Positions 14,235 to 57,417 of a DNA stretch of 64,000 nt are shown piece after piece. Made by a program: the position numbers and the translations under genes. The notes below the pieces were generated by a model, which made no database searches, was not told where the DNA came from, and was given only the letters and a program-made list of their open reading frames with translations. Position 1 is the stretch's first letter, and each line of letters opens with the position of its first letter. Origin of the DNA: an uncultured Candidatus Saccharibacteria bacterium (GTDB lineage: Bacteria; Patescibacteriota; Minisyncoccia; Phycocordibacterales; UBA9973); assembly GCA_964441495.1 (NCBI GenBank), contig CAYTXV010000001.1:58851-122850 (forward strand). Reading direction: 5' to 3'.

Positions 14235-14609
14235 TCATTTATCCAAACTCTTGGACAAACCACAGTAGTCATCTCTACCTTGTAGCCATACCGCACCAAG
14301 CGCTACAAGGAGCCCTATATCACGAATACCGACTGCAGTAAGTCCAAGTGTCCAAACAATCATCAAAAGATGAAGTACAAGTAATGGCACTACAAATCGT
14401 ACCCCTACACCAAACACAAGAAGTGATCCTGTGATGATTTCAAACACAGCGTTGAACAACACCCACGTCTCTGCAGACGCAACCTTGGTGAGAAACTCTG
14501 GGATAAGTCCAGTCCACATAGTTTGGTCATAGAGCTGCGTAAACCCAAACCAGAGAAACACAAATGCAAGTCCAGTCCGAAGGACAAGTGGCGCGTATGA
14601 TTTATACAT
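14235..14609 (-). CDS. DoxX family membrane protein
   Basis: 124 aa with 4 TM segments in a DoxX-like pattern (LRTGLAFVFLWFG...). Confidence 0.7.
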   Translation of the reverse strand: MYKSYAPLVLRTGLAFVFLWFGFTQLYDQTMWTGLIPEFLTKVASAETWVLFNAVFEIITGSLLVFGVGVRFVVPLLVLHLLMIVWTLGLTAVGIRDIGLLVALGAVWLQGRDDYCGLSKSLDK

Positions 14610-15529: not shown

Positions 15530-15618
15530 GGTGTAAGTATAGCGCAGTTTTGCTTTTGTGTTACACAAAAATTGACTTATTTATAAAATATTATATAATG
15601 ATTAAAAATCTATCGCGT

Positions 15619-16548
15619 ATGAAAAAGTTCTTTTTATTTGTAATACCAAATTTTATCTTCTTAGTATTTGCTACCGCGCAAACCAAAGTTTACAAGACAA
15701 ATCATTTAAACATTGGTTTTGGTAAAGCAAGTAATTGCATTGAAAACAATCTTCTAATTTTTTGCGTTAACGGACCACTTGTCGACTCTGTTCATTACCC
15801 TGTTGGTGGATACATTGACAACGGTATCCGGAAACAAAAATGGATTGATCCTTTAAAAGCTACTGGAAATTTTTCTGTTGATAACGCTGTATTTGGCTTA
15901 GGTACAAATGGAAATTTCTGTATGATACCTTATTCGGATATAGCATCACTACCAGCTCTCACATGGGGATTTCAAAATGGACCCATGTTGGTAAAAAATG
16001 GAAAAAATATTCGAGGAACCTCAACAACTAAGTATCCGCGCTCCGGTAAGGAACTTTATGATCAGGTTCAAGGTCAGGTAAAAAGCCAGGTACTACGAAT
16101 ACAAGAACCGAAAGAATTCGCTTTCACAAAGATGATGTCGTGTGGTCTATGCGACTCTGGGATCTGTGCAGATGAGAAGTTTAAGAAGCTTAAAGATGGA
16201 TCTGTGAATAGGCACGTTTACTACAGCTGTACGAAGTCAAAAGATAAGTACTGCAAGTGTGGGTACATAAACGAAGTAGACCTTATAGAGCAATTTGAGA
16301 AACTACTCGATCGCATCAATATCAGTGAAATCGGAATGAAAGATAAGATCAAATACGAGGTTGAGCGAATTAAGAAGTTTCAACAATCAGTTTTGAATAT
16401 TAAACAGCAGATACAAATCAAAGACGTAGATATAAGAGACTACGCTAAATTTATTTTAAAGGACGGAGCAATTGAAGAGAAACGAGAACTGCTTACTTGC
16501 TTTAAGAGTAAAATACTACTCAAAGAAAAACAGATATACATTAGCTAA
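15619..16548 (+). pseudogene. chimeric ORF: secreted phosphodiester glycosidase-like N-terminus (15619-16047) fused in frame to a large-serine-recombinase zinc-ribbon + coiled-coil C-terminus (16048-16548)
   Basis: The signal peptide and GTNGNF...QNGPMLVKNGK resemble DUF2233/phosphodiester glycosidase proteins. The 3' part, FTKMMSCGLCDSGICADEKF...YYSCTKSKDKYCKCGYINE, matches the recombinase zinc beta-ribbon and tail. The region is AT-rich. Confidence 0.55.
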
Positions 16549-16936
16549 AATTAACTACAAAGTTATACATCCCCATACCACAAACTCCTTGGAGTGGTTC
16601 TCCTGCCTTGGGTGTTCCTACATCAATCACTTCTTCTCCAGTTTGAGCTAATATCTTTTGATATCCCAATGACTTGATTACAAGTGATGAAGAACAGTCG
16701 TAAGTACCGTTTGTCTTCATAATTAGTTTTGTAGGAATCCCTGCTTTTGCGTTAGATAGTTTTGGGGAGTATCCACCTTTAGCATCGACGGTTATGTATT
16801 GAATTCCATCTCTTACCTCAACATTCTGCATAGCCTGTGTTGATGCAGTTTTATCGCTACCTTTCGAACCTACAAAAATAGTACCGATTCCAATAATGAG
16901 TCCGATAGTGATAATTGATAAAGCAATTTTATTCAT
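16541..16936 (-). CDS. cupredoxin-like secreted/lipoprotein (copper operon accessory)
   Basis: N-terminal signal/TM, then CSSSLVIKS...GVCGMGMYNFVVNF, a cupredoxin-type Cu-site motif. It is the last gene of the cop operon. Confidence 0.6.
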   Translation of the reverse strand: MNKIALSIITIGLIIGIGTIFVGSKGSDKTASTQAMQNVEVRDGIQYITVDAKGGYSPKLSNAKAGIPTKLIMKTNGTYDCSSSLVIKSLGYQKILAQTGEEVIDVGTPKAGEPLQGVCGMGMYNFVVNFS

Positions 16937-16944
16937 AAAGTTAA

Positions 16945-17952
16945 TTATATATTAAATAATGGATTGATAATTCCGAGTCCTGCCAAGCCAGCAAGTAGTG
17001 CGAATAGTCCAAGACCGATCACCACAACTCCTGCGGATTTAAAGAATAAAGGCGCATGTCTTCCGTGCGCGAACGACGCAGACCCGAACGAGAGAAGTAA
17101 AAGCACTGGTAACGTCCCGAGGGCAAAAGCTAGCATGATAAACATTCCTGAACCAAAAGATCCACTACCTAATGCGGAAACCTGCATTGATTGGGTAAAG
17201 CCGCACGGTAAGAAAAATGTGGCAAAACCGAGAATGAGTGGAGTAAACGTTTTATGCTCAATTCTCCTGAAGAAATTAAAGATTCCAGACGGCAGAGCAA
17301 TTTTGTTCTTTTTAAAAACTCCAACCAGATTCAAACCTAACGTGAGCATCACAAGCGATGCCAAAAGACCTAATATTGCCGTAAGGGTAAAATTAATGCC
17401 GATAGCACTTCCTACAGCGCCAAGCACCCCACCCAATATTGCAAAGCTGACAATTCTTCCTATATGGAAGAGTAGAAACGTTTTGGTATCGCTCACATTG
17501 TCTTGAGATATCTTTGCTGATAGAGACAAAACCAATCCTCCCACTATAGCAAGACAGCTTGAAACCGAAGCTATGAGCCCAATAATGAAGCTTGTGATTG
17601 GTGTGGTCTGCCCACCGATCCCAAGATTAAGAATTCCTGATTTCTGTAATAAAAAGAACAACACCAGGAAACCAAGTCCAATCGGGAGAGCTTTCCAAAT
17701 AACATCGTCACTTTGTTTTTCCTTGACCGTTTTTTCAACGGAAAGAATATAACCATTAGATTTGATTTTATCTGTCAGCATATCTGCTAATTTTTCAGAG
17801 GAATAATCACTGTCAGTTTCTATTTCCACAATTTCATTCTTCAGATTGACTCGTGCATTTTGTATGAAGTCTTGTTCATTCAAGACATCCTCGATCAAGA
17901 TTTTGCATGATGCACAATGCGTACCAGATACGTGTAATATGTGTGTTTTCAT
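16945..17952 (-). CDS. HMA-domain fused to TauE/SafE (DsbD_2-like) permease
   Basis: N-terminal MxCxxC-like HCASC metal-binding domain followed by about 8 TM segments. Confidence 0.7.
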   Translation of the reverse strand: MKTHILHVSGTHCASCKILIEDVLNEQDFIQNARVNLKNEIVEIETDSDYSSEKLADMLTDKIKSNGYILSVEKTVKEKQSDDVIWKALPIGLGFLVLFFLLQKSGILNLGIGGQTTPITSFIIGLIASVSSCLAIVGGLVLSLSAKISQDNVSDTKTFLLFHIGRIVSFAILGGVLGAVGSAIGINFTLTAILGLLASLVMLTLGLNLVGVFKKNKIALPSGIFNFFRRIEHKTFTPLILGFATFFLPCGFTQSMQVSALGSGSFGSGMFIMLAFALGTLPVLLLLSFGSASFAHGRHAPLFFKSAGVVVIGLGLFALLAGLAGLGIINPLFNI

Positions 17953-17954
17953 AC

Positions 17955-20249
17955 TTATAATTTCTTAGCTTTAATGCGAAGTGAGTTCGAGACTACGGAG
18001 ACCGACGACATCGCCATAGCAAATCCAGCAAAAATAGGATTCAAAAGCCAACCAAAGATTGGATAGAAAGCACCTGCCGCAAGCGGTATACCAACGATGT
18101 TGTATATGAATGCCCAGAAAAGATTCTGCTTGATTCCTCTCATGGTAATTTTTGAAAGCTTAATGGCTTTTACGAGCTTTGAAATGTCCCCTCCAAGGAG
18201 GGTGATTCCTGCCGACTCAATCGCGACATCCGTACCTGTTCCCATGGCAATACCGACGTCAGCTTGGGCAAGTGCGGGAGCATCATTCACCCCATCACCT
18301 GCCATAGCGACAATACGACCCTGTGACTGGAGCTCTTTTATTTTTTCAAGCTTATCTTGTGGTAATACATGCGCCACAATGTCATCAATACCAACGAGTG
18401 ATCCGATATACTTAGCGGCTTTTTCATCGTCTCCTGTAAGCATAACCACTTTTATGCCGAGAGCATGAAGACTTTTGATAGCCTCTACTGACTCAGCCTT
18501 TATTTCGTCTGCCACCATCACAAAACCGAGTACCTTCTCTTTGGTAGCAAGAATGACTGGTGTCTTTCCTTGCGAGGTAAACTCATTTAACCTATCAGCG
18601 TCAAATGAAATTTTTAGGTCGGTCACAAGCTTCGCATTGCCCACAAAATATTCAGTGCCCCTGATCTCTCCCTTGAGACCTTTTCCTTGTATTCCTGCAA
18701 AGTTTGAAACATCAGATATCGAGATATTTTTCTCCTGTGCGTAGTTTACGATTGCATGTGCGATCGGATGCTCAGATTTTTTCTCAAGCGAAGCGAGAAT
18801 TGAAAGAAGTTCATCATCTTTCAAGTTTGCGAGGTTTTGTATGTCGACAAGTGTCGGCTTTCCTTTGGTTATTGTTCCTGTCTTGTCGACCACAACTGTG
18901 TTTACCTTATGAAGCTTTTCGAGAGTAGCCGCATCTTTGATGAGAATTCCTTCCTTGGCACCTTTGCCGACTCCAACAATTATTGCAGTTGGAGTAGCGA
19001 GACCAAGTGCACATGGACAAGCTATTACTAGGATTCCCACAAAGGATACGAGACCGAATGAAAGTGCCTGAGAAAATCCTAGATACTGCGACCCAATAAT
19101 GAGCCATGCACCGAGGGTAAGAAAAGCGATTATAAGAACTATGGGCACAAAGATGGCTGATATTTTGTCTGCCATTGCCTGTATTGGCGCCTTGCTTCCT
19201 TGAGCATCTTCAACCATCTTTATGATCTGAGCGAGCAGTGTCTCTGAACCAACCTTTGTAGCTTTAAAGGTGAATGATCCACTTGTATTCATTGTGCCAG
19301 ATACGACATTGTCGCCAATCTTTTTCTGGGCAGGCATCGGCTCTCCTGTAACCATCGATTCATCAATAAAAGATGAGCCTTCAGTGATGACACCATCAAC
19401 AGGAATTTTTGAGCCTGGCTTCACGATAATCAGATCTCCATGCTTTACGTCGTTTACTGGAATCTCTATTTCCTTTCCGTCACGAACAACCAATGCTGTT
19501 TTGGCTTGAAGATTGAGAAGTTTCTCGATCGCATCACCAGTCTTAATTTTAGACCTGGCTTCGAGGTATTTACCGAGCGCAATAAAGGTAATAACCACTA
19601 TCGTCACGTCATAGTACTGGTACTCGACGTTAATAAACGGCTTAAGAACGTCCTCAAAAGCACTGACGGCGAAACTGTATAAAAAAGCGGCTACCGTACC
19701 GATACCAATAAGGGTATCCATATTCGCTTTGCCGTATCGGAGAAATCTATAAAAACCAAGGAGGTACGGCTTACCAACTACAAAAAGGATATAGGTGGCA
19801 AATATCGGGAGAAGATGATGAAAGAATTCCTTGAGTGTGTAGCTCATTGCAGGAACGATGCTGTACTCAGCGAGAATATCCCAACCCATAACGAAAGCAG
19901 CAAAAACTGCCAGAGGAATTGCAGAGAGCACTTTCGTCCGCATGTCCGCAACTTCATTGAGCTTCTCTTTCTTTGACTGATTCAATCCCAAGTGAGCCGC
20001 ATGCTCACTTTCAGACATACCCATCTCGTTCGCTGTCTCGGGGACATCGAGTGAATATCCGAGAGGTTCGATATGCTTAGAGAGGTCGTGAGGACTTATT
20101 TTTGAAGGATCAAAGGAAACCTTGGCCTTCTCCGTTCCATAGTTCACCTCTGCAGAATGCACACCATCAACTTTCTTAAATGTTTTTTCAATAACAGATG
20201 AACATGAGGCACAATGCATTCCTTTTACGTTGTATGTTTGTGTGTGCAT
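17955..20249 (-). CDS. copA: copper-translocating P1B-type ATPase
   Basis: HMA domain (GMHCASC), CPC motif (ACPCALGLATP), DKTGT, TGDD and GDGVNDAP motifs. Confidence 0.9.
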   Translation of the reverse strand: MHTQTYNVKGMHCASCSSVIEKTFKKVDGVHSAEVNYGTEKAKVSFDPSKISPHDLSKHIEPLGYSLDVPETANEMGMSESEHAAHLGLNQSKKEKLNEVADMRTKVLSAIPLAVFAAFVMGWDILAEYSIVPAMSYTLKEFFHHLLPIFATYILFVVGKPYLLGFYRFLRYGKANMDTLIGIGTVAAFLYSFAVSAFEDVLKPFINVEYQYYDVTIVVITFIALGKYLEARSKIKTGDAIEKLLNLQAKTALVVRDGKEIEIPVNDVKHGDLIIVKPGSKIPVDGVITEGSSFIDESMVTGEPMPAQKKIGDNVVSGTMNTSGSFTFKATKVGSETLLAQIIKMVEDAQGSKAPIQAMADKISAIFVPIVLIIAFLTLGAWLIIGSQYLGFSQALSFGLVSFVGILVIACPCALGLATPTAIIVGVGKGAKEGILIKDAATLEKLHKVNTVVVDKTGTITKGKPTLVDIQNLANLKDDELLSILASLEKKSEHPIAHAIVNYAQEKNISISDVSNFAGIQGKGLKGEIRGTEYFVGNAKLVTDLKISFDADRLNEFTSQGKTPVILATKEKVLGFVMVADEIKAESVEAIKSLHALGIKVVMLTGDDEKAAKYIGSLVGIDDIVAHVLPQDKLEKIKELQSQGRIVAMAGDGVNDAPALAQADVGIAMGTGTDVAIESAGITLLGGDISKLVKAIKLSKITMRGIKQNLFWAFIYNIVGIPLAAGAFYPIFGWLLNPIFAGFAMAMSSVSVVSNSLRIKAKKL

Positions 20250-20252
20250 AAA

Positions 20253-20528
20253 TTATTTTCTCTTTAGCTTATAAACTTTTAAAATCTCCTGTTTTGCTTT
20301 TTCGGTCTGTCCAGCCTTAACCTGATTCAGAATGCACCCACCAAGATGATTTTCAAGCAACAAATCTTCAATATTTGAAAGTGCTTGTTTGACTGCGGAA
20401 GTTTGGGTGATCACGTCAATACAGTAGGTGTCACTTTCGATCATCTTTTGCAGACCTCGAATCTGACCCTCAATGAGCTTGAGGCGACGAATGATTTTGA
20501 CCTTACTTTTGTCTTCCATATATTTCAT
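20253..20528 (-). CDS. csoR: CsoR family copper-sensing transcriptional repressor
   Basis: MKYMEDKSKVKIIRRLKLIEGQIRGLQKMIE...YCIDVITQ...ENHLGGC is the DUF156/CsoR signature. Start trimmed to the internal Met downstream of the operator. Confidence 0.8.
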   Translation of the reverse strand: MKYMEDKSKVKIIRRLKLIEGQIRGLQKMIESDTYCIDVITQTSAVKQALSNIEDLLLENHLGGCILNQVKAGQTEKAKQEILKVYKLKRK

Positions 20529-20537
20529 ACATAGTAT

Positions 20538-20561
20538 TATATACCCCCTGGGGGGTATATA
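20538..20561. promoter_or_regulatory. CsoR-type operator: GC-tract inverted repeat TATATACCCCC-T-GGGGGGTATATA
   Basis: Near-perfect 11/12-bp inverted repeat immediately upstream of csoR-copA. It resembles the B. subtilis copZA operator TACCC..GGGTA type. Confidence 0.6.
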
Positions 20562-20574
20562 GCAAGTCAAACAT

Positions 20575-20598
20575 AAAAGCACCCGATTGGGTGCTTTT
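20575..20598. terminator. bidirectional hairpin aaaagcaccc-gatt-gggtgctttt
   Basis: Perfect 10-bp stem flanked by A and T runs; it insulates the cop promoter from upstream transcription. Confidence 0.5.
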
Positions 20599-20880
20599 AT
20601 GTTCTGGATACTGCTCTCAGCAGGTATGCAATTTACAGTATAGTTGTCTCTTACTAGCCCTATCTTTGAGCTAGCTCAAGTTTGCTGGCTGTCGTGGTCT
20701 TGAACCTGCGTGATAAGACACCGTAAGGCTTTCTTGTGACCCCTTCTACTCCTTAGTCGAGGCGTCTCGGTCTCTAGGGTGTTTTTTCGCATCAAGCAAA
20801 CTAAGCGTATTTCACCCGTCTCGGTCACTGTCTCATTTTGAAATCAAGGCAGATTAAGGGTTCTTTGAAGAATAAGGGTG

Positions 20881-20936
20881 GTTTAGGAAAATGAGACAGA
20901 ATAAGACACTTTGGCGGTTATTGAAATCGTGTCTCA
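20881..20936 (-). terminator. possible terminator after the DHH gene
   Basis: 7-bp stem tgagaca/tgtctca with a long loop, followed on the minus strand by TTTTCC. Weak. Confidence 0.3.
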
Positions 20937-22193
20937 CTTTTTGGCGAAGTAAGCCTTGAGTAATGGCGTTACCTCCTTACGCATAATAAAATCTGATCGA
21001 ATTGCAACATTATCTTCAAAAGAAATGTTGAGCACCTTAGAAAGCACGTTCTTCATATGCTCATCATCGGATACGAACACATTGAAGCCGCCACCAAGAT
21101 CTATGAAAGAGATAAAGATATGATCCACACCTTCTTTTGATTTCAAGTCATTCAATATTTCAAACAGTTCATTCTTATGGGTTTCAACAAGTTGCTTAGC
21201 ATCCATCATTTCAAGCTGAGCGTAGCCAATCTTATTGCCAATTCCACCGAAATCGAACCAAGCAAAGTCAGCATCTACCGCTTGAGCAAGCCGGTCACCA
21301 TCCATATTGGACTTTGCGCGGAACATGTCGTCTATAAATTCCTTAGTGAGTCCGAGCTTTTGATTCAACCAATCAGCCATGAGTCGGTCGCGATCAGTCG
21401 TTACCTTCGCTCGGAAGTTGAGTGTGTTGGAGACGATTGCACCATAGAGCATGGTTGCTGTCGGTACTGAAATCTCTACATTATTCGCATGGAATTTCTC
21501 GGCAATAAGGGTAGCGGCCGAACCGACAAGCTCTATCTGAATCTTTGCGTTCTTGAACGCATCCGCATCATTGAACTTGCGGTGGTCAATGATTTCAACA
21601 ATATTCTCTGGCTTGATGAATTTATCGAGATCACGCAATTCACTGGCATCCGTAAGCACTACTTTTTCCAAAGAAGCGTTATTGTCCTCTTCGAAATGAA
21701 AGCCGAACTTCTCGACCAAATGTTGGACCTCAATATGTGGAGTACCAAAAATACGCACAACCGCAGGTGTGCCTGTTTTATTTAAAAACTCAGCATAGGC
21801 GACTGAACACGCATATCCGTCGAGATCGGGCTCGGTATAACTCGTTACGACCACTTCATGACTGTTGTCATCAATGACGAAATCAAGTTGTTCCGATGGT
21901 ATGCCGATGGACTGACCATAAGCGACTGCTTCGGACCACGTAGACTTGTCTGAGTGTTTGATTGAAAAATTCTTACCCTTATATACAACGAGCACATCAT
22001 CTTTGCCTGGCTCCCAGAAATGGATGTACCAAGGGCCATCAGCAAGATAATTGCCGATCTGCTTTGCCGTTTCCTCCTCGACCAAGACGTTGTGAAGAAT
22101 CCAATTGCCAGATTGCCACGTCTTCTCGATTTTTATTTCCGAGAGAATACTTTTATCTACCAAGCTATTTTCAACAATGGTTCCCTTGAGCAT
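20934..22193 (-). CDS. DHH/DHHA2 protein homologous to family II inorganic pyrophosphatase, with substituted catalytic motifs and a ~120-aa N-terminal extra domain
   Basis: DLDGYACSVAYAEFL and GSAATLIAEKF align to PpaC. The conserved DHN is DAS, DHH is DHR, and the Ser of DS is N. A DHHA2-like GGG motif is present; the N-terminal 120 aa have no recognisable family. Confidence 0.65.
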   Translation of the reverse strand: MLKGTIVENSLVDKSILSEIKIEKTWQSGNWILHNVLVEEETAKQIGNYLADGPWYIHFWEPGKDDVLVVYKGKNFSIKHSDKSTWSEAVAYGQSIGIPSEQLDFVIDDNSHEVVVTSYTEPDLDGYACSVAYAEFLNKTGTPAVVRIFGTPHIEVQHLVEKFGFHFEEDNNASLEKVVLTDASELRDLDKFIKPENIVEIIDHRKFNDADAFKNAKIQIELVGSAATLIAEKFHANNVEISVPTATMLYGAIVSNTLNFRAKVTTDRDRLMADWLNQKLGLTKEFIDDMFRAKSNMDGDRLAQAVDADFAWFDFGGIGNKIGYAQLEMMDAKQLVETHKNELFEILNDLKSKEGVDHIFISFIDLGGGFNVFVSDDEHMKNVLSKVLNISFEDNVAIRSDFIMRKEVTPLLKAYFAKK

Positions 22194-22195
22194 AG

Positions 22196-22744
22196 TTATT
22201 CAAGTGTGTACTCCCATCCTGGCTTCCACGACTTTGTCTTTCTCCAATCATTAGCTAGTGCTTCATCCCAAGTAAAACCCTTCAGCAAAACATCAAGCGC
22301 GAGCTGGGGTGCTTTATGTCCAACAAGAGCGACGTTTTTACCATCGTAATTCTCCTTGAGGAACTTTAAGAAATCATCTACTCGATTCTTAACATCTTCA
22401 TAACTTTCACCGTTTGGGAATGGTTTGAAATGCATTTCTTTCTCTTGGAGCGGTTCAACCTCCTCTGAAGGGTGGCCGTTCAAATCGCCGTAGTTGCATT
22501 CCCGAAGTCTCGCGTCAGGAATGATTTCGTACATATCACCCCACGCAAGTTCCGCTGACTTTCGTGCTCGTTGAAGATCAGAGCAAAAAACTACATCAAA
22601 ATGTTTGTCTTTGGTCTGCTCTTTAAGCGCAATTGATTGCTGTTCACCCAGCTCAGAAAGTGGTGCATCAGACCAGCCTGAGGAAATTTCATTCTGGTTG
22701 TCTACAGTCGTACCGTGAACAAAATAAGTGATTTTTACAGACAT
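22196..22744 (-). CDS. histidine phosphatase superfamily (phosphoglycerate mutase-like) protein
   Basis: ITYFVHGTT (RHG-type catalytic His motif region), ...GHKAPQLAL. Confidence 0.75.
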   Translation of the reverse strand: MSVKITYFVHGTTVDNQNEISSGWSDAPLSELGEQQSIALKEQTKDKHFDVVFCSDLQRARKSAELAWGDMYEIIPDARLRECNYGDLNGHPSEEVEPLQEKEMHFKPFPNGESYEDVKNRVDDFLKFLKENYDGKNVALVGHKAPQLALDVLLKGFTWDEALANDWRKTKSWKPGWEYTLE

Positions 22745-22748
22745 AAAT

Positions 22749-23216
22749 TTATTCGATATTCCCACCGTGATACCAACAACGGTATATTAATTCTCCATTG
22801 AGGTAAATATTTTCCTCACCAGAGAATCTGTCGAGTGCTCCTTCGACCTTGTTTGTATATTTGCTGTTCTCTAAAACGTATTCTTTTGGACCACGTACTG
22901 GAAGAATATCGTCATATTCTTGCATAAGCGCAGGTCGAAGAATTGTGTACGCATCCTTGGTAGAAATATCGGGATTCAGGACATGACCGTAATAGTTCAT
23001 TCCCCAGACTGGCGCGCCAGCTTTATAGACAACTTCCTCTCCTATAAAATCTCGAGCACCGAAGTACGTGTCGTGGTATGTAAGGTCTCTCTGCTCAAAG
23101 TGATAGTCCTCGGAAGACGGTCTTAGAGAGGTAGCCTTCGATGCTTCCTTATTCGCATATGTTGCCTTATTCGCGGCATTTAGGAATTTGGTGAGTTCCT
23201 CGTGCGAAATTTTCAT
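22749..23216 (-). CDS. hypothetical protein (DUF-like; YHDTYFG...PVWGMNYYG motifs)
   Basis: First gene of a 3-gene minus-strand operon, with an extended -10 TGGCATAAT 10 nt upstream of the ATG. Confidence 0.5.
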   Translation of the reverse strand: MKISHEELTKFLNAANKATYANKEASKATSLRPSSEDYHFEQRDLTYHDTYFGARDFIGEEVVYKAGAPVWGMNYYGHVLNPDISTKDAYTILRPALMQEYDDILPVRGPKEYVLENSKYTNKVEGALDRFSGEENIYLNGELIYRCWYHGGNIE

Positions 23217-23332
23217 ACAAGCATTATGCCATAAAATGAAGCTTATCTAAAGGGCTCTTTGTCTCCTTTTCTGTGAGGAGGAAAATATAGATACGGGGTA
23301 AAAACCGTGTTTATAAACTAGCCATAAAATAT

Positions 23333-23708
23333 ATGGAAATATCAAAAGAATTGCGCGAGAAGTTTCGAGAGGAATTTAAGAAGAAAGGCGCGGAGTATAC
23401 GGAAGCCGAAGAAACCGAGGCAATTAATAATCTGACTGGTTTCTTCGAGCTGATATACGACTTCGCCAAACGAGACACTATCTTGCACAAGAGATTGAAG
23501 AAAGAGCCGAAATCGAATCCCACAATGAGTTTCAAGAGTCGGTGCTAGGGCGAGAAGTTAAAGAAAAGATAAAGATCAAGGAAATCGACATCAGGAATTA
23601 TGCAAAACATATTTTAAGAAAGAGACCAATGTATGAGAAGCGAGAATTACTGAGTCATCTGAGAAGCAAGCTGGTGTTGAAGGAGAAGCAACTGACATTG
23701 GTGAAATA
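23333..23708 (+). pseudogene. frameshifted remnant of a large serine recombinase C-terminus (second copy)
   Basis: Frame A gives MEISKELREKFREEFKKK...INNLTGFFELIYDFAKRD. After a frameshift, ...AQEIEERAEIESHNEFQESVLGREVKEKIKIKEIDIRNYAKHILRKRPMYEKRELLSHLRSKLVLKEKQLTLVK. This is homologous to the tail of the 15619-16548 ORF (KFQQSVLNIKQQIQIKDVDIRDYAKFILKDGAIEEKRELLTCFKSKILLKEKQIYIS). Confidence 0.6.
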
Positions 23709-23718
23709 GTGAGCAAAC

Positions 23719-23753
23719 AAAAATCATCAAATGAATGGTGATTTTTGTTTTTT
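23719..23753 (+). terminator. hairpin plus T-run after the recombinase remnant
   Basis: aaaatcatca...tggtgatttt followed by tgttttttg. Confidence 0.4.
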
Positions 23754-23839
23754 GAGACTAGTTCGAGCCCATGACTGGTTCTCAAAACTATTCCTCCTAA
23801 ACAGCCGTTTTAGGCGTTTAGGTAGGTCTCACATGACTG

Positions 23840-23910
23840 CTGCCCGACAGGGACTCGAACCCCAATTTACGGTGCCAGAAACCGGCGTCCTACCATTAGA
23901 CGATCGGGCA
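23840..23910 (-). tRNA. tRNA-Gln (anticodon CUG)
   Basis: Hand-folded cloverleaf: U1-A72 acceptor tgcccga/tcgggca, D-arm, anticodon loop uuCUGgc, T-loop ttcgagt. CCA is not encoded. Confidence 0.8.
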
Positions 23911-24150
23911 AATTAAATTTTTTATAATTTGCTCTTTTAACACCCTTTGCTGTTTAACTTTCTTTTCGAAAGCTCTTGCCCCACTTTCTTGTGCAAATTC
24001 CTGGCTATGCACAAGAGTGAGTGGTATATGGTGCCTAGTCGAACTCACCATGCCAGCATTGTGTTGGTGCAACCTTCTTTGAATATCGTTGGTACTACCT
24101 ACGTAATACCAGTTTTTCTTAGAGGATTTGAGAAAATAAACGAACCACAT
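23896..24150 (-). CDS. GIY-YIG nuclease family protein (UPF0213/YhbQ-like)
   Basis: MWFVYFLKSSKKNWYYVGSTNDIQRRLHQHN matches the GIY-YIG signature. The 3' end overlaps the first 15 nt of tRNA-Gln. Confidence 0.75.
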   Translation of the reverse strand: MWFVYFLKSSKKNWYYVGSTNDIQRRLHQHNAGMVSSTRHHIPLTLVHSQEFAQESGARAFEKKVKQQRVLKEQIIKNLICPIV

Positions 24151-24154
24151 ATCA

Positions 24155-24200
24155 TTATCCTACCATTAGACCTGCCTGCGCAGGCAGGCGATCGGGCAAT
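24155..24200. repeat. second copy of the tRNA-Gln 5' half (about 25 nt) interrupted by an 18-nt GC-rich palindrome
   Basis: tcctaccattagac-CTGCCTGCGCAGGCAGGC-gatcgggca, versus the intact tRNA tcctaccattagac-gatcgggca at 23886-23910. Together these form direct repeats flanking the GIY-YIG ORF. Confidence 0.6.
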
Positions 24201-26764: not shown

Positions 26765-26837
26765 GAGCCACCTCCGAGGATCGAACTCGGGACCTATGGT
26801 TTACGATACCATTGCTCTACCAGCTGAGCTAAGGTGG
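26765..26837 (-). tRNA. tRNA-Thr (anticodon CGU)
   Basis: Hand-folded: acceptor gccacct/aggtggc, anticodon loop atCGTaa, T-loop ttcgatc. Confidence 0.85.
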
Positions 26838-26840
26838 CCT

Positions 26841-26869: not shown

Positions 26870-27577
26870 CTACCTCTTTTCAAAATAACACACAACACTA
26901 CGGCGCTTCGCGGGCTTGCCTTTGATGTGGTGCTTGCCCGAGAGTTCCTTTTTCATCATGATAAAATCATTTTCAAATGCCCGTGCGAGCGCCTCGTCGG
27001 TCCACACGTACTCATACACTTTGAGCTTGGGGTGGATGTATGCGTTTTCTTCACCAGCGCCATGTTTCTCGAGAAGCTCTTTGGTGTGACTATCACGCTC
27101 TGCATAAAATGATTTGAAAAAGAGCACCCCTTGCGATTTGAGCACACGTGCAACTTCCTTGATAAATCTTTCTCGCTCAACATTCTTGAGAAAGTGACTA
27201 CTCATCGCGTCAATAACAAGATCGACTGATTGGTCCTCAAGTGGGATCAGTTCATCAAGTGATCGTACCTTAAATGTAAGCTTGCTTCCCCACTGCTGCT
27301 TCGCAGCGTTTTTTTGTGCCTGAGCAATCGCTTCATCAGAGATGTCATAGCCGACACCACCAAGTCTGAATGTCTCATTGAGCCACAATAAGTTCCGTCC
27401 ATTGCCACACCCCGCATCGAGCACAACGGTGTCTGGGCGAAATACATCCTTGCCATACTCCTTCATCATCCACCTGACGCATTTCACCAAGTCTGCCGAG
27501 ACTTCATCCGAGAGCGCAAACATCCCTGGATCCTTGTACTCCTTATTCCAAAATTCTTTGAGCCGCTTTTCGTTCAT
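26870..27577 (-). CDS. class I SAM-dependent methyltransferase (small-molecule type)
   Basis: VLDAGCGNGRNLLWL is motif I; Rossmann fold. Start set at MNEKRLKEFW, downstream of the promoter module. Confidence 0.75.
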   Translation of the reverse strand: MNEKRLKEFWNKEYKDPGMFALSDEVSADLVKCVRWMMKEYGKDVFRPDTVVLDAGCGNGRNLLWLNETFRLGGVGYDISDEAIAQAQKNAAKQQWGSKLTFKVRSLDELIPLEDQSVDLVIDAMSSHFLKNVERERFIKEVARVLKSQGVLFFKSFYAERDSHTKELLEKHGAGEENAYIHPKLKVYEYVWTDEALARAFENDFIMMKKELSGKHHIKGKPAKRRSVVCYFEKR

Positions 27578-27595
27578 GCTGTATAACTCTTGTGT

Positions 27596-27629
27596 TTGAC
27601 ATTCTATCAGAAAAGTTGTAATGTTGCAA
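27596..27629. promoter_or_regulatory. divergent promoter module A (minus TTGCAA-17-TAGAAT; plus TTGACA-17-TAATGT)
   Basis: A 43-bp element, tgtttgacattcta(t/a)cagaaaagttgtaatgttgcaaaaaaca, repeated almost identically at 28592-28634. Confidence 0.5.
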
Positions 27630-27720
27630 AAAACACAAATTATGTTAAAAAAACTTTTTGACACGCCACCGAAACGACAATATAGCTCTAGGTTATATGG
27701 AGGAAGGTTGTCATCTGAAG

Positions 27721-27912
27721 ATGACAGAAGATGATTTGGTAAAATGGTTTACTGACCCGCAACTTTTTTCGACCCCATTTACAAAACCCGAAGAGATTGA
27801 GATTTATGAAAATACAGAAAATGCTTTTTCTTTTGAGGAGCTTTCTAAAAAGGCAAAATCTCAACTCCGCACAGATCTGGTCAAACAAATTATTGAGCGA
27901 AGGTCAAACTAA
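27721..27912 (+). CDS. small acidic hypothetical protein (about 63 aa)
   Basis: ATG preceded by GGAGGAAGG; lies between promoter module A and terminator A. No family. Confidence 0.3.
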   Translation: MTEDDLVKWFTDPQLFSTPFTKPEEIEIYENTENAFSFEELSKKAKSQLRTDLVKQIIERRSN

Positions 27913-27932
27913 AATGTTTATGCCTTAAATGA

Positions 27933-27961
27933 AAATCCCTGGAGTATATCCAGGGATTTTT
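27933..27961. terminator. hairpin aaaatccctgga-gtatat-ccagggatttt
   Basis: Perfect 12-bp stem with flanking A and T runs (bidirectional). Confidence 0.6.
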
Positions 27962-28592
27962 TACGCTTTTCTCTTCGCCTTTGCTCGCTCTGTTTCAGTG
28001 AGAAATCTTATGAAAAACTTCAAATCTTTTAGCGTATTTATATTTATACAATCACTCGAATAAGGAATTGCTGAAACATGTTTTTTAAGAAATGCTTGAA
28101 TATTGAGAGACGAAATATAACTCAACAAATCTGCTTCTGTTTTTTGAAATAAAACAGGTACAGAGTACAAGTTTTTGTGAGCATCATACATGCATACACT
28201 TTTTTACTACCAAAAGCTTTGTATTTCTCAAGAATCTCTGAGTTGTAAAAAATATCTCCGTGACTAAATATAAAAGCGCTATTTGTAATAAATGATTGTA
28301 TTTCTTTGTAAGCAAAAGGATTTTTGCTTTTTTGCCAATCAAGAACACAAGTTCGATAACGAGCCTTTGGGAAAAAATTATTTTGTACAAAGTTTTGAAA
28401 TAATGCTACCTGCCAATCTTTTTCAAACACAAGAAGAAAATCTTTTACTCCAAACAAAACAAGTATTTGAATCTGGTATGTCAGTAACGGCTTACCCTTT
28501 ATGAAACAAAGCGACTTGGGAATGATACCACCTGTTAGTTCAGGAATTCTTTTTCCTTGCCCACCTACCACCAACACCGCTTTTTTGAACAT
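27961..28592 (-). pseudogene. sugar-phosphate nucleotidyltransferase gene interrupted by a frameshift, ending in a typA-like 3' tail
   Basis: MFKKAVLVVGGQGKRIPELTGG...GKPLLTYQI is the NTP-transferase N-terminus. The reading frame breaks near 28122-28191, and the protein continues in the 27961-28191 ORF ending ...FLTETERAKAKRKA. The last ~46 nt are about 80% identical to the typA 3' end at 29003-29048. Confidence 0.55.
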
Positions 28593-28594
28593 GT

Positions 28595-28628
28595 TTGACA
28601 TTCTAACAGAAAAGTTGTAATGTTGCAA
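28595..28628. promoter_or_regulatory. divergent promoter module B (copy of module A)
   Basis: Same TTGACA / TAGAAT / TTGCAA arrangement. The minus-strand TSS is predicted at or near the NTase ATG (leaderless). Confidence 0.5.
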
Positions 28629-28655
28629 AAAACATTTCTAACTAAAAATAATTTT

Positions 28656-28958
28656 ATGACGAAAGAAAAAGAGAGGTTACCTAGAGAAACATATTCTATA
28701 GGTGATAATATCATCCTTGAAAACAGAGAACCCTTGAAAGGAAATGATATAGCTCCCCCGTTTCCAAAACGAAAGAAAAACTACAAAGTACTGAGGATAG
28801 AGCTCGACTCAAAAGGCAACCAACATTTAGGAGTTGGCTTAAAATCAAAAGTTAACTTTGTGAGATCATATGAAACAGGTGAACGCCTTACTGGGAGTGG
28901 TAATACACATTATTGTCACCCTTCTCGATTTAGAAAAAAAGTAAAAAGAAACAAATAG
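28656..28958 (+). CDS. small basic hypothetical protein (100 aa)
   Basis: MTKEKERLPRETYSIGDNI...GNTHYCHPSRFRKKVKRNK; no family recognised. Confidence 0.3.
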   Translation: MTKEKERLPRETYSIGDNIILENREPLKGNDIAPPFPKRKKNYKVLRIELDSKGNQHLGVGLKSKVNFVRSYETGERLTGSGNTHYCHPSRFRKKVKRNK

Positions 28959-28970
28959 TTTCCTCTAACA

Positions 28971-29000
28971 AAAATCCCCGATCACATGATCGGGGATTTT
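28971..29000. terminator. hairpin aaaatccccgatc-acat-gatcggggatttt
   Basis: Perfect 13-bp stem; bidirectional terminator shared by typA and the small ORF. Confidence 0.6.
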
Positions 29001-30931: not shown

Positions 30932-32698
30932 TCATTCTTTGCCAAGAAACTTTGTCCACCCAGGAAAATCAGGATAAATCCGCCGAGGATCGTAGACTAG
31001 CCCCGGATCTTTTTTATAGGATTGTTTATAGCTAGTTATAGAATTTATTCCTAAAGTTTTACAAGCTTTTGAGGCTTCTTTCCAATTCTTATATCGGGCT
31101 TTACCTAAAAACACAACGTAACCAGGAAAATCTGAGTACACTGTTTCAGGGCGCGAAGGAAGTTTTGGATCTTTTTTAAAATCAATTTTATATTGATCAA
31201 AAGTTTTAATCCCTAATTTGATTGCAGCTTTAGATGCTAACTTCCAAGACTTGTAAAAATTTTTTGGTTTTCTTCCAAGGAAGATGTACCACTTTGGAAA
31301 ATTTTTATATGTCCTATTTGGATTTCCTGGAAGTCTTGGGTCTTCTTTAAATCTATTTTTATAATCCGTATAATTTTTGATTCCCAATTTAACAGCTGCC
31401 TCAGAAGCTTCCTGCCATGTCGGGTAAAAATCTTGCCCCAATCTCTCAAACACAGAGAATAAATTTACAACCTGATCTGAGAAGTCAAAACTAAATCCTT
31501 TTCCTTCAACATGAAGCGGAGACATATTCGGTGTGCCATTCTTCTTCCGTTCAATTCCGGCGATTGTTTCAATCTCCAGTGCAAGTTTTGCAACCTGTTT
31601 GATCCGTTCAATGTTTCCGACAAAGTCCAGTACGACAACTTTTTCTTTTCCAGGAACTTTTCGCAACCCTCTTCCGAGCTGTTGATAAAAAATCCGTTCA
31701 GATTCAGTACGCCTGAGGAAACTCAGAAGTTCTGTATCAGGAATATCAATACCTTCATTGAACTTATCAACGACTAGCACATGTTTAACTGCGCCGGTTT
31801 CGAATAGTTCATAGTTAGCATCATTTACCCCTGTTGCCTGTTGTGAATGGATAGATACGGAGGATGGAAGCAAGAAACTGATGTGCTGTGCGTGTTGGAT
31901 ATTTTCGCAAAACACAATCGCTTTCCTTGTTTTTGAATACTGTTGAATGATTTTGCACTGCTCCTGAGAACGGACTTTGATAAAGATCTTTTCATTGATT
32001 TGCTTTTCTGTCATACGAACATTGTCGTCGAGGACATCTTTGCAAATTTGTCTGATTTTTTCTTCATCAAGTCCATCAGAAAGCAATTTGTATTCAACAG
32101 GGGTCAACCATCCTTTTGCGATTGCTTCGGGTAAGAGGATTTTTACAACCTCTTCTCCGAATATGTCGCGGATATCTTCTCCATCTTCACGATCAGGAGT
32201 TGCGGTCATGCCAAGCTTATACTTTGGCTTGAAGTAATTGATTACTTCAGCGTAGGTTTCCGCTTGAGCGTGATGACTTTCGTCTACCACAATAAACGTA
32301 AAGTGCTTTGGAGAAAATAATTTCTTCTTTGCCTTTGGATTATTGAGGTGCGCAAGAACTGATTGGAATGTGGCAAACACGAAATTGTGTTTATCTGCCT
32401 CCCAGTCTTTTTGGGTGCCATAAAATTTGGCATAGGTGTATGATTCCCCGATATACTTTCTGTAATCCTTGTATGTCTTGTTTAAGATGCCATTATCGTG
32501 GCACAGAAAAAGTACTCTGTCTTTCGGGGTAATGAAATATTTCACCACCTCGATCGACACAATCGTTTTTCCCAAACCAGTAACCATGACCATAAGGGCA
32601 CGGAAGGTTTTCTTAAGCGCAGCAACAAGTTTCTTGAAAGCTATACCTTGGTAATCATACAGTTTGATTTGTTTACTGTTTGATTTTGAATGTGCCAT
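30932..32698 (-). CDS. SF2 DExH helicase (ResIII + helicase C) with three tandem ~55-aa C-terminal repeats
   Basis: YDYQ, GLGKT and VVDESHH motifs, a helicase C domain (QQLGRGLR), then three repeats of W.EAS.AA.KLGI..(5)YK..FKKDP.LP..P..(V/I)Y.(D/N)FPGW..FLGK. AT-rich gene. Confidence 0.8.
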   Translation of the reverse strand: MAHSKSNSKQIKLYDYQGIAFKKLVAALKKTFRALMVMVTGLGKTIVSIEVVKYFITPKDRVLFLCHDNGILNKTYKDYRKYIGESYTYAKFYGTQKDWEADKHNFVFATFQSVLAHLNNPKAKKKLFSPKHFTFIVVDESHHAQAETYAEVINYFKPKYKLGMTATPDREDGEDIRDIFGEEVVKILLPEAIAKGWLTPVEYKLLSDGLDEEKIRQICKDVLDDNVRMTEKQINEKIFIKVRSQEQCKIIQQYSKTRKAIVFCENIQHAQHISFLLPSSVSIHSQQATGVNDANYELFETGAVKHVLVVDKFNEGIDIPDTELLSFLRRTESERIFYQQLGRGLRKVPGKEKVVVLDFVGNIERIKQVAKLALEIETIAGIERKKNGTPNMSPLHVEGKGFSFDFSDQVVNLFSVFERLGQDFYPTWQEASEAAVKLGIKNYTDYKNRFKEDPRLPGNPNRTYKNFPKWYIFLGRKPKNFYKSWKLASKAAIKLGIKTFDQYKIDFKKDPKLPSRPETVYSDFPGYVVFLGKARYKNWKEASKACKTLGINSITSYKQSYKKDPGLVYDPRRIYPDFPGWTKFLGKE

Positions 32699-32710
32699 TT
32701 TTTTGATTTT

Positions 32711-32763
32711 TAGTGGGTTATTTCAAATTCCTAAAACATTTGAGAACCTAAAATAACCCACTA
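32711..32763. repeat. perfect 13-bp inverted repeat (tagtgggttattt / aaataacccacta) with 27-nt loop upstream of the helicase gene
   Basis: Lies between the intron-containing tRNA and the helicase start; could be an operator or a processing hairpin. Confidence 0.5.
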
Positions 32764-32806
32764 ATTTTTCAATATTATACTATATTTAGACAATAAAGTC
32801 AAATAT

Positions 32807-33060: not shown

Positions 33061-33083
33061 CGTGGTATTGCTCCTGCAAAATA

Positions 33084-33680: not shown

Positions 33681-33733
33681 AGTAGATACTGTACAGTATA
33701 GTATATAGTTCTACTATTTTTATCTTTTTTCAA

Positions 33734-56114: not shown

Positions 56115-56135
56115 GGAGAAATTGTACTGCTACTG

Positions 56136-56357: not shown

Positions 56358-56451
56358 AAAATATTTAGTTTAGTTTTTTTCATTATATACCATATATTTT
56401 CGCGCTTTCAAATCTTTATATAAAAACACCCCCAAAGCTTCATAGAGGGTG

Positions 56452-57370: not shown

Positions 57371-57417
57371 TTTGTATAGTTTTTCACACTATACACTTAT
57401 TTATATAAAAGTCAATA

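Follow-up and report, generated by a model that had tools for sequence, protein, structure and literature searches.

A decayed island beside the tRNA-Gln 3′ end in a Paceibacteria genome, probably left by tandem elements of a serine integrase family that appears to target tRNA genes

An island of 8.3 kb (∼15545-23837) lies directly past the 3′ end of a tRNA-Gln gene in the window, the whole stretch of 64,000 nucleotides that we analyzed from a Paceibacteria (Patescibacteria/CPR) genome. It very probably derives from two or more integrative elements of one family, E1 and E2, and is no longer mobile; the elements would have been placed head to tail after the tRNA 3′ end by the att-site mechanism of large serine recombinases (LSRs) and reduced by two deletions, with no recombinase activity left. 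The island appears to be an ordinary decayed remnant leaving useful cargo; what appears unusual is the element family, tRNA-targeting serine integrases in CPR bacteria. Its features are as follows, with strand given where one applies.

15545-15571: left boundary zone; original tRNA-to-DUF5946 spacer mostly deleted, GC drops onward
15556-20682: E1; glycosidase stump, LSR tail, complete csoR-copA-HMA/DsbD-cupredoxin operon
15572-15599, plus: sigma-70-like promoter match, TTGACT-16-TATAAT, 11 of 12 positions; a consensus match only
15619-16047, plus: 5′ fragment of a phosphodiester glycosidase gene (NAGPA/DUF2233), 143 codons from the ATG at 15619, with signal peptide
16048-16548, plus: LSR remnant 1, residues ∼273-440 of a 440-aa LSR (zinc ribbon, coiled coil, C-terminal tail)
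16541-16936, minus: cupredoxin-like protein (PF13473, E 1.4e-7), last gene of the copper operon
16945-17952, minus: HMA plus DsbD_2/CcdA-like membrane protein (PF13386, E 1.6e-32; PF00403, E 1.2e-9)
17955-20249, minus: CopA-type P1B copper ATPase, 764 aa, intact (E1-E2_ATPase, E 4e-60; Hydrolase, E 5e-34; HMA, E 2e-17)
20253-20582, minus: CsoR-family copper-sensing repressor (PF02583, E 6e-24)
20570-20603: perfect 15 bp hairpin opening the E1 right-end module (inverted repeat I8, 100% complementary)
20604-20682: E1 right-end module, ending in the palindrome TTGAGCTAGCTCAA at 20666-20679
20683-23837: E2; left-end block, pyrophosphatase/histidine-phosphatase/DUF5680 operon, gene stump, 67-aa LSR tail
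20683-20840: conserved noncoding block (∼155 nt), opening with a tRNA-Gln-3′-like arm, TGCTG GCTGTCGTGGTCTTGAACC
20934-22193, minus: DHH/DHHA2 protein (PF01368 and PF02833), family II inorganic pyrophosphatase homolog
22196-22765, minus: histidine phosphatase family protein (PF00300, E 1.3e-32)
22749-23216, minus: DUF5680 protein (PF18931, E 7.7e-33), first gene of the three-gene operon
23333-23512, plus: 5′ fragment of a gene of a 221-aa protein family, 60 codons
23503-23709, plus: LSR remnant 2, residues 374-440 only; in-frame stop at 23497
23710-23837: E2 right-end module; hairpin at 23715-23750 (inverted repeat I11), then an L028-like LSR-to-tRNA spacer
23839-23910, minus: tRNA-Gln(CTG), intact (ARAGORN; Rfam tRNA, 52.7 bits), 3′ end toward the island

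The closest sibling genome, L016 (FtsX 89% identical), is without the 8.3 kb island. Its gene order is PrfB-FtsE-FtsX-tRNA-Gln followed by a DUF5946 gene, cytochrome b5, DoxX, and MutY, with 118 bp between tRNA-Gln and the DUF5946 gene, which in the window flanks the island on the left. The two tRNA-Gln genes are identical through the 3′ end and identity stops just past it (...GGGCAGCA, window 23838), placing the right boundary exactly at 23837/23838. On the left, similarity restarts ∼25 nt upstream of the DUF5946 ATG at 15529, which resolves that boundary to ∼25 nt, and attL is unreadable because the island's left junction is eroded. Window and L016 form an insertion/absence polymorphism with a defined insertion point, and the GC profile of the window shows 36-44% inside ∼15.5-23.9 kb versus ∼49-51% in the flanks. 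An earlier note on this DNA had proposed an integrative element with its right edge at the tRNA-Gln 3′ end, and the tRNA gene, with its 3′ end facing inward, the empty site in L016, the low GC, and LSR matches uphold this. The comparisons that it suggested turned out in its favor: alignment with siblings shows the empty site at tRNA-Gln, the profile across 15.5-23.8 kb an island-like drop, and homology searches highly significant LSR matches for both recombinase fragments. The tRNA-Gln gene appears, from these alignments, to be the integration target of the island's elements.

Both fragments are C-terminal. Remnant 1 (16036/16048-16548) aligns without gaps to residues 270-438 of the intact 440-aa LSR of L002 (85% identity, E 9e-91), in agreement with its earlier description as a zinc-ribbon and coiled-coil tail. 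Its match to Pfam Zn_ribbon_recom (PF13408; E 1.7e-4, 22.3 bits) is under the gathering cut-off of 25.3, and the zinc β-ribbon, coiled coil, and C-terminal tail are recognized from this match together with the ungapped alignment. Among 198 homologs at E ≤ 1e-3, most have PF07508 and PF13408, with PF07508 in the longer ones; remnant 1 shows no match to PF07508, the Recombinase domain, and starts at residue ∼273, past that domain. Since remnant 1 begins ∼480 bp inside the left edge, the two remnants do not bound the island as had been thought. It is joined in frame to the glycosidase stump, whose full gene encodes ∼210 aa and which has 39 homologs of that size at 44-68% identity, Pacebacteria MAGs among them, and a Pfam NAGPA match under the cut-off (E 0.0026).

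Remnant 2 consists of 67 codons of the extreme C-terminal tail, without the zinc ribbon attributed to it before, and is 78% identical to the intact LSR of L028 (E 1e-28) and 53% to that of L002. The two remnants are homologous to each other, as proposed (52% over 48 aa, E 3e-16). The second fragment had also been read as a frameshifted recombinase at 23333-23708, which we reject: only 23503-23706/23709 is LSR-derived, without a frameshift, and 23333-23512 has no similarity to the intact LSRs with which it was compared. An unrelated gene begins with this segment, whose 60 aa match L111:216-881 at 48% identity (E 5e-9); in relatives, its 221-aa family lies upstream of ParB-methylase/TerS genes, and a deletion joined the stump to remnant 2.

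The catalytic half of the recombinase is missing, as the first reading had it. With two intact LSRs as queries, tblastn finds only the two tails in the whole window, and an HMM from 76 intact N-terminal domains reaches a best E of 0.61 against its six-frame translation. Because the PF00239 resolvase catalytic domain with its serine nucleophile is absent from the whole window, the copies there are remnants and not recombinases; intact relatives have it (E 1e-19 in L070; also in the 440-aa protein of L002).

E1 carries the csoR-copA-HMA permease-cupredoxin operon, with Pfam domains as originally described. The cupredoxin gene is convergent with remnant 1 and overlaps its stop. Window 16048-20706, from LSR tail 1 through the csoR-copA operon, matches L002 9971-14627 at 98.7% identity. 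CopA is equal in length to that of L002 with six amino-acid differences, the cupredoxin-like protein has none, and the true start of CsoR is probably at 20528, giving 91 aa as in the L002 gene call. The CsoR repressor and the P1B ATPase with its HMA domain both appear intact, in frames near-identical to those of L002. The copper function of the operon is predicted, and, apparently intact, it is presumably what selection retains. In L002, the block adjoins a tRNA-Gln that is only 78% identical to the window's, and the flanking genes differ. This recurrence of the LSR tail 1-copper block beside another tRNA-Gln, together with an att-like junction before the second module, sustains the earlier suggestion of two tandem elements and argues for at least two, E1 with copper and E2 with pyrophosphatase genes.

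The E2 operon was described as three phosphoesterase genes; its gene content stands (DHH/DHHA2, His_Phos_1, and DUF5680), with the refinement that the DHH protein is a family II pyrophosphatase homolog. This protein has a 113-aa N-terminal extension, and homologs of ∼306 aa cover 73% of it. L144 has a homolog with 90% identity as cargo of an LSR element, placed between tRNA-Ser and the intact LSR, unlike the arrangement in the window. The pyrophosphatase operon may be part of the element of LSR tail 2 or may represent a third element with its LSR entirely lost.

At the E1/E2 junction (20666-20706), a conserved palindromic element end is fused to a tRNA-3′-like arm. The hairpin on its E1 side and the ATGTTCTGGATACTGCTCTCAGCA that follows are also found in L002, L024, L028, L102, and L137. 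In most of 31 loci with an intact LSR, a palindrome, GAGCTAGCTC or GTGCTAGCAC, stands 4-6 nt past the tRNA 3′ end, and this is kept across Gln, Ser, Trp, Glu, and Asn targets; it is also at the tRNA end in L002, L003, L005, and L010. The E1 right-end module at 20604-20682 is accordingly a candidate P′ arm of attP. The block at 20683-20840 is 76% identical to L115 14451-14607 and L143 1433-1602, in both of which it likewise adjoins the P′ end of an LSR element lying upstream, and has no Rfam or ARAGORN match. We infer that it is the left end (P arm) of E2; with only two independent occurrences, it may instead be of another nature, for instance a small RNA. The fusion of a P′ end to a tRNA-like arm is seen again in L115/L143, L003, L070, L078, and L134, and the AGTCATGTGAGACCTACCTA... 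directly after the tRNA is common to the window and L028. The right end of the island and its internal junction have the P′ palindrome and tRNA-like arm of the family, and the left end is deleted.

The relatives come from a set of 80 intact LSRs retrieved with a full-length query. Each is ∼440 aa with resolvase, recombinase, zinc-ribbon, and coiled-coil parts, and among solved structures SPbeta SprA (YokA) is the nearest match (E 3e-13). At least the methylase and TerS-like genes lie upstream in 47 of 80, and TerL as well in 35; the PHROG matches are phrog_38 for TerL (E 5e-83) and phrog_24579 for the TerS-like protein (E 8e-7). The usual order is a ParB-methylase/TerS/TerL module, the LSR, 0.1-7 kb of variable cargo, a terminator hairpin, a GAGCTAGCTC-type palindrome end, and a convergent tRNA. 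No capsid or portal gene was recognized in the 11.6 kb unit of L143, and none of the relatives' packaging genes are left in the window. Among 47 loci with at least 3 kb of downstream sequence, 28 have a tRNA downstream of the LSR and 19 have none in the available sequence; in L143, no tRNA is present in the 700 bp available past the LSR, which follows TerL. The first downstream tRNA is convergent in all 31 loci that have one (tRNA-Gln in 17), a constant adjacency and orientation of the element end to the tRNA 3′ end. Repeats of 9 bp or more are absent between the tRNA and the LSR-upstream region, which fits serine rather than tyrosine recombination. The LSR family appears, from this recurring layout, to target tRNA genes.

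We propose that the LSR would recombine attP, composed of the palindromic P′ end and the P arm, with an attB that has one arm in the tRNA 3′ end. The P arm would mimic the tRNA T-arm/acceptor (GCTG-N13-GAACC), and the crossover would fall at or just past the tRNA terminus, a predicted position that would leave the tRNA intact and create no long repeat. Because the tRNA arm would survive and the far end of the element mimics it, further elements could insert beside the first, and repeated insertion, with P-arm mimicry as its probable cause, would yield tandem arrays. E1 and E2 would have inserted in an order that can at most be inferred, and two deletions would have taken the body of each element and the 5′ part of its LSR gene. 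Beyond the window, we incline, with slightly better than even confidence, to the view that these LSRs are a widespread, undescribed clade of ∼440-aa serine integrases of Patescibacteria that are specific for tRNA 3′ termini (Gln, Ser, Trp, Glu, and Asn). Their carriers would be small terminase-bearing phage- or satellite-like elements whose attP combines a tRNA T-arm/acceptor mimic with a palindromic arm, keeping the tRNA and regenerating the target, so that cargo could accrete head to tail and be swapped by homologous recombination in the LSR 3′ half.

Other histories of the island are conceivable. The whole 8.3 kb could have arrived in one integration, with the junction at 20666-20706 an internal relic, given that tandem composites can move as units and that insertion order is indeterminable here. 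This is improbable: the E1 unit stands alone beside tRNA-Gln in L002, the island has two LSR tails and two right-end modules, and the E2 end module and tail belong to another LSR subtype (that of L028); even one arrival would imply earlier assembly from two elements. That the island is ancestral and was deleted from L016 seems extremely unlikely in view of its GC, 6-13 points under the flanks, the recombinase remnants inside, the same copper block in an unrelated genome context, and different insertions in other siblings at the same tRNA-Gln, even if just one close sibling with the left-flank genes is available for comparison.

The remaining alternatives concern the recombinase. The LSR may have been a passenger on an island integrated by a since-lost tyrosine integrase, as in classical tRNA islands. 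A large survey found tRNA targets for 44.5% of tyrosine-integrase elements versus 4.9% of serine-integrase elements and regarded use of t(m)RNA genes by serine integrases as previously unreported and in need of proof (PMC7192596), and the earlier description of the tRNA as a classical integrase target holds for the former class and not the latter. We nonetheless consider a passenger LSR very unlikely because Pfam detects no Phage_integrase domain in the island, the complete small element L070 has no tyrosine integrase, LSR, cargo, palindrome, and tRNA keep their order at 31 loci with at least five tRNA types, tRNA-derived direct repeats are absent, and the boundary falls exactly where the tRNA ends and not within it. 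There is an equally slim chance that the tails were kept as functional truncated zinc-ribbon/coiled-coil proteins, for example att-site binders that prevent new integration or excision. The frame of tail 1 is open, fused to the glycosidase start behind the best promoter match of the region, and it encodes the same amino acids as the L002 copy although the two differ at 17 nucleotides; many tail homologs are also predicted as short proteins. But of the 17 changes, all silent, 16 fall in 16056-16227, where the zinc-ribbon codons are most conserved, and the adjoining segment is 0.6% divergent; such clustering marks a breakpoint of recombination between two alleles whose divergence dates from when both were intact. 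The truncation point varies by copy (residue 273 in the window, ∼245 in L002, others elsewhere), tail 1 is here fused to a signal peptide, and tail 2 has only 67 codons and a stop in frame upstream. Short homologs were overrepresented through the ranking and clustering of search results, and the full-length query brought up the 80 full-length copies.

Read as tandem LSR elements, the island shares features with several known systems. LSR elements and prophages (SPbeta SprA/YokA, A118, TP901-1, phiC31, and Bxb1) have the resolvase, recombinase, and zinc-ribbon domains of the intact relatives, a phage packaging module beside the integrase, and no long flanking direct repeats. To our knowledge, characterized LSRs use protein-coding or intergenic sites, whereas this family is short (440 aa), has an apparent tRNA 3′-end target, and occurs in Patescibacteria, with only C-terminal stumps in the window. 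In staphylococci, CcrAB serine recombinases place SCCmec/SCC composite islands, including ACME/COMER copper modules, at the 3′ end of rlmH/orfX. By description, these too are LSR-driven islands next to the 3′ end of a conserved housekeeping gene, which grow in series by adding elements head to tail at a site that is regenerated, leave remnants without ccr, and carry metal and other resistance genes, but they differ in their protein-gene target, their CcrA/CcrB pair instead of one recombinase, and the terminase-linked module of the family here. Classical tRNA islands (tyrosine integrase; P4-like; Islander/TIGER) likewise show insertion on the tRNA 3′ side, tandem arrays, integrase decay, and retained adaptive cargo; the island described here differs in having no tyrosine integrase, no duplicated tRNA 3′ segment, and a boundary at the tRNA end rather than inside it. 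Its copper genes resemble CsoR-CopA efflux operons in CsoR (PF02583), CopA with an N-terminal HMA domain, and accessory metal-binding proteins, except that the accessory genes encode an HMA-DsbD_2 membrane protein and a cupredoxin and not CopZ, and that the operon is mobile cargo in CPR genomes.

Taken together, the relatives make up a coherent family of elements in a group, CPR/Patescibacteria, about whose phages and mobile elements little is known. The family moves copper resistance, restriction-modification, pyrophosphatase, and other genes between distinct CPR genomes, two of which have a 4.3 kb segment in common at ∼99.4% identity, and it accounts for many short "recombinase family" stubs annotated beside tRNA genes in CPR MAGs. 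Should the att-site model prove right, integrases this compact (440 aa), whose targets nearly all bacteria conserve, could serve as genetic tools where none exist.

GC content is 0.36–0.44 from ~15.5 to 23.9 kb of the window and 0.49–0.51 on both sides, a break in composition expected of the decayed integrative island that an earlier note, made from the sequence alone, had proposed at this location. Flanking FtsX identifies the host as a Paceibacteria/Patescibacteria (CPR) bacterium, and a scan of species-representative genomes for FtsX found a nearest sibling (locus L016; 89% identical FtsX) with the empty site that the note had predicted. The order in L016 is methyltransferase-PrfB-FtsE-FtsX-tRNA-Gln followed, after 118 bp, by a DUF5946 gene, cytochrome b5, DoxX, and MutY, the genes that lie to the left of the island in the window. 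The tRNA-Gln sequences are identical up to ...GGGCAGCA and likeness ends exactly there (window 23838/23837), placing the right edge at the tRNA 3' end, where the note had it. On the left side, likeness to L016 is regained only ~25 nt before the start codon of the DUF5946 gene (15529), thus most of the original spacer was deleted and the left junction is illegible. Pfam agrees with the note on a csoR-copA-HMA permease-cupredoxin operon and a three-gene operon between two recombinase remnants. Features of the island and of tRNA-Gln are:

16541–16936, minus strand, cupredoxin (Pfam)
16945–17952, minus strand, HMA and DsbD_2 membrane protein (Pfam)
17955–20249, minus strand, CopA-type ATPase (Pfam)
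20253–20582, minus strand, CsoR (Pfam)
20934–22193, minus strand, DHH/DHHA2 protein (Pfam), a pyrophosphatase homolog
22196–22765, minus strand, histidine phosphatase (Pfam)
22749–23216, minus strand, DUF5680 (Pfam)
23839–23910, minus strand, tRNA-Gln(CTG), 3' end toward the island (Rfam tRNA, 52.7 bits)
within 23896–24200, GIY-YIG nuclease gene of 84 aa, immediately upstream of tRNA-Gln (PF01541, E = 1e-15)

The tRNA-Gln site is an insertion hotspot. Siblings have other insertions behind the same tRNA gene; for example, L028 has an intact large serine recombinase (LSR) gene at a distance of 175 bp, L026 has CsoR-CopA, and both L024 and L025 have LSR stumps. Near FtsX/tRNA-Gln, L026 (11385–13674) and L038 (4008–7706) have CsoR-CopA or CopA/HMA-DsbD/cupredoxin genes that are diverged (38–58% amino acid identity), hence copper modules have been acquired repeatedly at this site.

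The finding of the earlier note is real and its interpretation essentially correct, with the coordinates and nature of the second recombinase fragment in need of mending. Fragment 1 is, as claimed, an LSR C-terminal remnant: in tblastn, window 16036–16542 aligns without gaps to residues 270–438 of the intact 440-aa LSR of related locus L002 (85% identity, E = 9e-91), and zinc-ribbon cysteines are kept (Pfam Zn_ribbon_recom, E = 1.7e-4, narrowly short of the gathering score). Joined to the fragment in the same reading frame are the first 143 codons, from an ATG at 15619, of a gene for a phosphodiester glycosidase family protein, ~210 aa when whole and common in Paceibacteria MAGs; tblastn found no copy of the glycosidase fragment in the retrieved loci. 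The top promoter-like match of the region (15572–15599) is upstream of the fusion. Fragment 2 was described as frameshifted and spanning 23333–23708; its LSR origin stands, its extent and frameshift do not. Only 23503–23706 is LSR-derived, corresponding to residues 374–440 (78% identity to the intact L028 LSR, E = 1e-28, tblastn), and an in-frame stop at 23497 precedes it. Rather than a frameshifted recombinase, the ORF at 23333–23548 begins with 60 residues that match the start of a 221-aa protein (L111:216–881, 48% identity), the family of which is located upstream of the genes for a ParB-methylase and a TerS-like protein in relatives. The two tails are homologous (52% identity, E = 3e-16), as had been noticed. 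The note's statement that the window has no resolvase catalytic domain also holds: tblastn with two intact LSRs found no further LSR sequence in the window, and a profile of 76 intact N-terminal domains gave a best E of 0.61 against the six-frame translation.

We parse the island as two (or more) elements, in line with the tandem pair that the note considered possible. The E1 block ends at a tRNA-Gln in L002, and the stretch from LSR tail 2 to the tRNA has its homolog in L028, in the spacer between LSR and tRNA. The predicted units are:

15556–20682, E1: glycosidase stump, LSR tail 1, cop operon, hairpin (20570–20603), end module
20666–20679, palindrome of the E1 end module, TTGAGCTAGCTCAA
20683–23837, E2: 155-nt block, pyrophosphatase operon, gene stump, LSR tail 2, hairpin (23715–23750), end module
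20683–20840 (window), 14451–14607 (L115), 1433–1602 (L143): conserved 155-nt block

Window 16048–20706 is 98.7% identical to L002 9971–14627, where the block from LSR tail to copper operon ends directly at that locus's own tRNA-Gln, which has other neighbors (DnaX, SecG) and is 78% identical to that of the window. Further out, L002 has an intact 440-aa LSR with Dsb/thioredoxin cargo. The LSR stump of L002 begins ~35 codons before the start of the window stump, implying that the truncations were independent. In the window, the E1 block meets no tRNA and ends at a tRNA-3'-like arm, TGCTG GCTGTCGTGGTCTTGAACC (20683–20706), which opens a non-coding block of 155 nt with 76% conservation in loci L115 and L143. 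In both, the block is preceded by another element, which has an intact LSR and a palindromic end, and is itself the start of a unit holding four uncharacterized genes, two methylases, TerS, TerL, and a fragment 2-subtype LSR. Within the block, GACCGAGACG occurs twice (minus strand), and some sub-blocks are strongly conserved. Rfam gave no match with E ≤ 1 to the window or L115 copy, ARAGORN predicted no tRNA or tmRNA, and the two-sequence alifold structure was weak and uninformative. We read the block as a probable element end; it may be a small RNA. The pyrophosphatase operon may derive from E2 or from a third element whose LSR is gone. In L144, a homolog 90% identical to this pyrophosphatase is carried as cargo, with tRNA-Ser on one side and an intact LSR on the other. 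The window homolog has a 113-aa N-terminal extension missing from nearly all of its ~306-aa homologs.

The window copy differs from the L002 copy at 60 positions, and their distribution is uneven. Sixteen are in 16056–16227, all synonymous and in zinc-ribbon codons (9% divergence), 26 are across the 4.3 kb of 16228–20550 (0.6% divergence), and 17 are in 20585–20701. The distribution indicates that the LSR 3' end and cop operon are a recently shared segment within more diverged backbones, likely because of homologous recombination between related elements. The sharp step from 9% to 0.6% marks a recombination breakpoint inside the LSR stump, such that cargo appears to be swapped between elements.

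Other readings of the remnants were considered. A domesticated LSR tail could be suggested by 17 silent and no replacement changes relative to L002, but a recombination breakpoint and conserved zinc-ribbon codons account for these counts, and the divergence pattern does not require a functional stump. A family of LSRs lacking the catalytic domain, whether split or domesticated, could be suggested by the first homolog search, in which all 120 matches listed for a C-terminal query were ≤282 aa and without PF00239; short proteins also dominated an exhaustive representative search. The excess of fragments is explained by ranking with a C-terminal query, clustering at 50% identity, and short contigs, and a full-length query gave 80 full-length 440-aa genes. 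It was also considered that 20684–20706 is a tRNA 3' end displaced in the style of tyrosine integrases. The family is without tRNA-derived repeats, and the piece begins the conserved 155-nt block, both arguing against this reading.

With the full-length LSR as query, the metagenome scan retrieved 80 loci that encode full-length relatives. In 47 of these, the LSR is preceded by genes for at least a methylase of the N6/N4 (ParB-type) kind and a TerS-like HTH protein that matches terminase small subunit PHROGs, and 35 of the 47 also have TerL (E = 5e-83 to phrog_38). This module, upstream of most intact LSRs, argues against an LSR at the far end of the element, an arrangement considered from L002, L005, and L010. 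The first downstream tRNA is always convergent with the LSR (31 loci, including 28 of the 47 loci for which at least 3 kb of downstream sequence is available); it is tRNA-Gln in 17 of 31 loci and tRNA-Ser, -Trp, -Glu, -Asn, or -Phe in the rest. In most loci, a palindrome, GTGCTAGCAC or GAGCTAGCTC, is 4–6 nt beyond the tRNA end regardless of tRNA type and thus marks the element end. No repeats of at least 9 bp are shared by the tRNA region and the sequence upstream of the LSR in family loci, and GCTCAAGTT-GCTG-N13-GAACC sites occur above a shuffled null 4–7 kb upstream of the LSR in L070, L078, and L134. The complete small element in L070 (~7 kb) has no tyrosine integrase. The closest solved relative is the SPbeta integrase SprA/YokA (E = 3e-13). 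Tandem arrangements occur in the window, L002, L003, L115/L143, and L134. The unit in L143 (1433–13030; IMG/VR UViG_3300014205_009253) is ~11.6 kb and comprises the block, four proteins (189, 1013, 242, and 359 aa) without Pfam or PHROG match, two DNA methylases, TerS, TerL, and LSR. It has terminase genes but no recognizable capsid or portal and may be a small CPR phage or satellite-like element.

Beyond the insertion, remnants, recurrent architecture, and conserved ends, which are shown, we infer that the LSR would recombine an attP, composed of the palindrome (P') and a tRNA-like P arm, with an attB having the tRNA 3' end as its conserved arm. The crossover is predicted to be at or just past the tRNA terminus because E1 copies in the window and L002 are near-identical up to ...AAGTTTGCTG and diverge within the tRNA-like part. 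As the tRNA arm would outlive integration and be mimicked by the P arm, more elements could insert beside the first. Later deletions would have taken the body of each element and the 5' part of its LSR gene, ending before the convergent cargo, which would explain why stumps keep their 3' ends and why an upstream gene's 5' end has become joined to each stump in the window.

Other features surround tRNA-Gln. The last codons of the GIY-YIG gene overlap the tRNA 5' end, and a second copy of the first ~24 nt of the tRNA, in its native upstream context (matching L016), is at 24158–24200, broken by an 18-nt GC-rich palindrome, CCTGCCTGCGCAGGCAGG. The region resembles a homing-type cassette, inserted into the tRNA gene and supplying it with a new 5' part; with the island on the other side, tRNA-Gln would be flanked by mobile DNA on both sides. 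Siblings L020, L026, and L033 have second, disrupted tRNA-Gln copies 60–170 nt downstream of the functional one, with short GC-rich insertions in the T-loop, D-loop, or anticodon region, resembling the palindrome-bearing pseudo-fragment of the window. Low-GC stretches at 27500–29000 (near tRNA-Thr(cgt), 26765–26838), 31000–34000, and 56000–58000 (0.33–0.39 versus ~0.48) may be other acquired segments.

Tandem accretion, integrase decay, CsoR-CopA operons, and serine-integrase islands or prophages are all familiar, and the tRNA target is the less familiar feature. Across 2,168 genomes, t(m)RNA genes were used by 44.5% of tyrosine-integrase elements and 14 of 297 serine-integrase elements, the latter use being stated as unreported before and in need of proof (PMC7192596). 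The note's remark on a "classical" integrase target needs qualification for serine integrases. Searches of the literature yielded no account of this element family or of LSR elements in Patescibacteria. Taken by itself, the island is an ordinary decayed remnant, and the family to which its elements belong appears moderately novel, as terminase-linked serine integrases with apparent tRNA-gene targeting in CPR bacteria.
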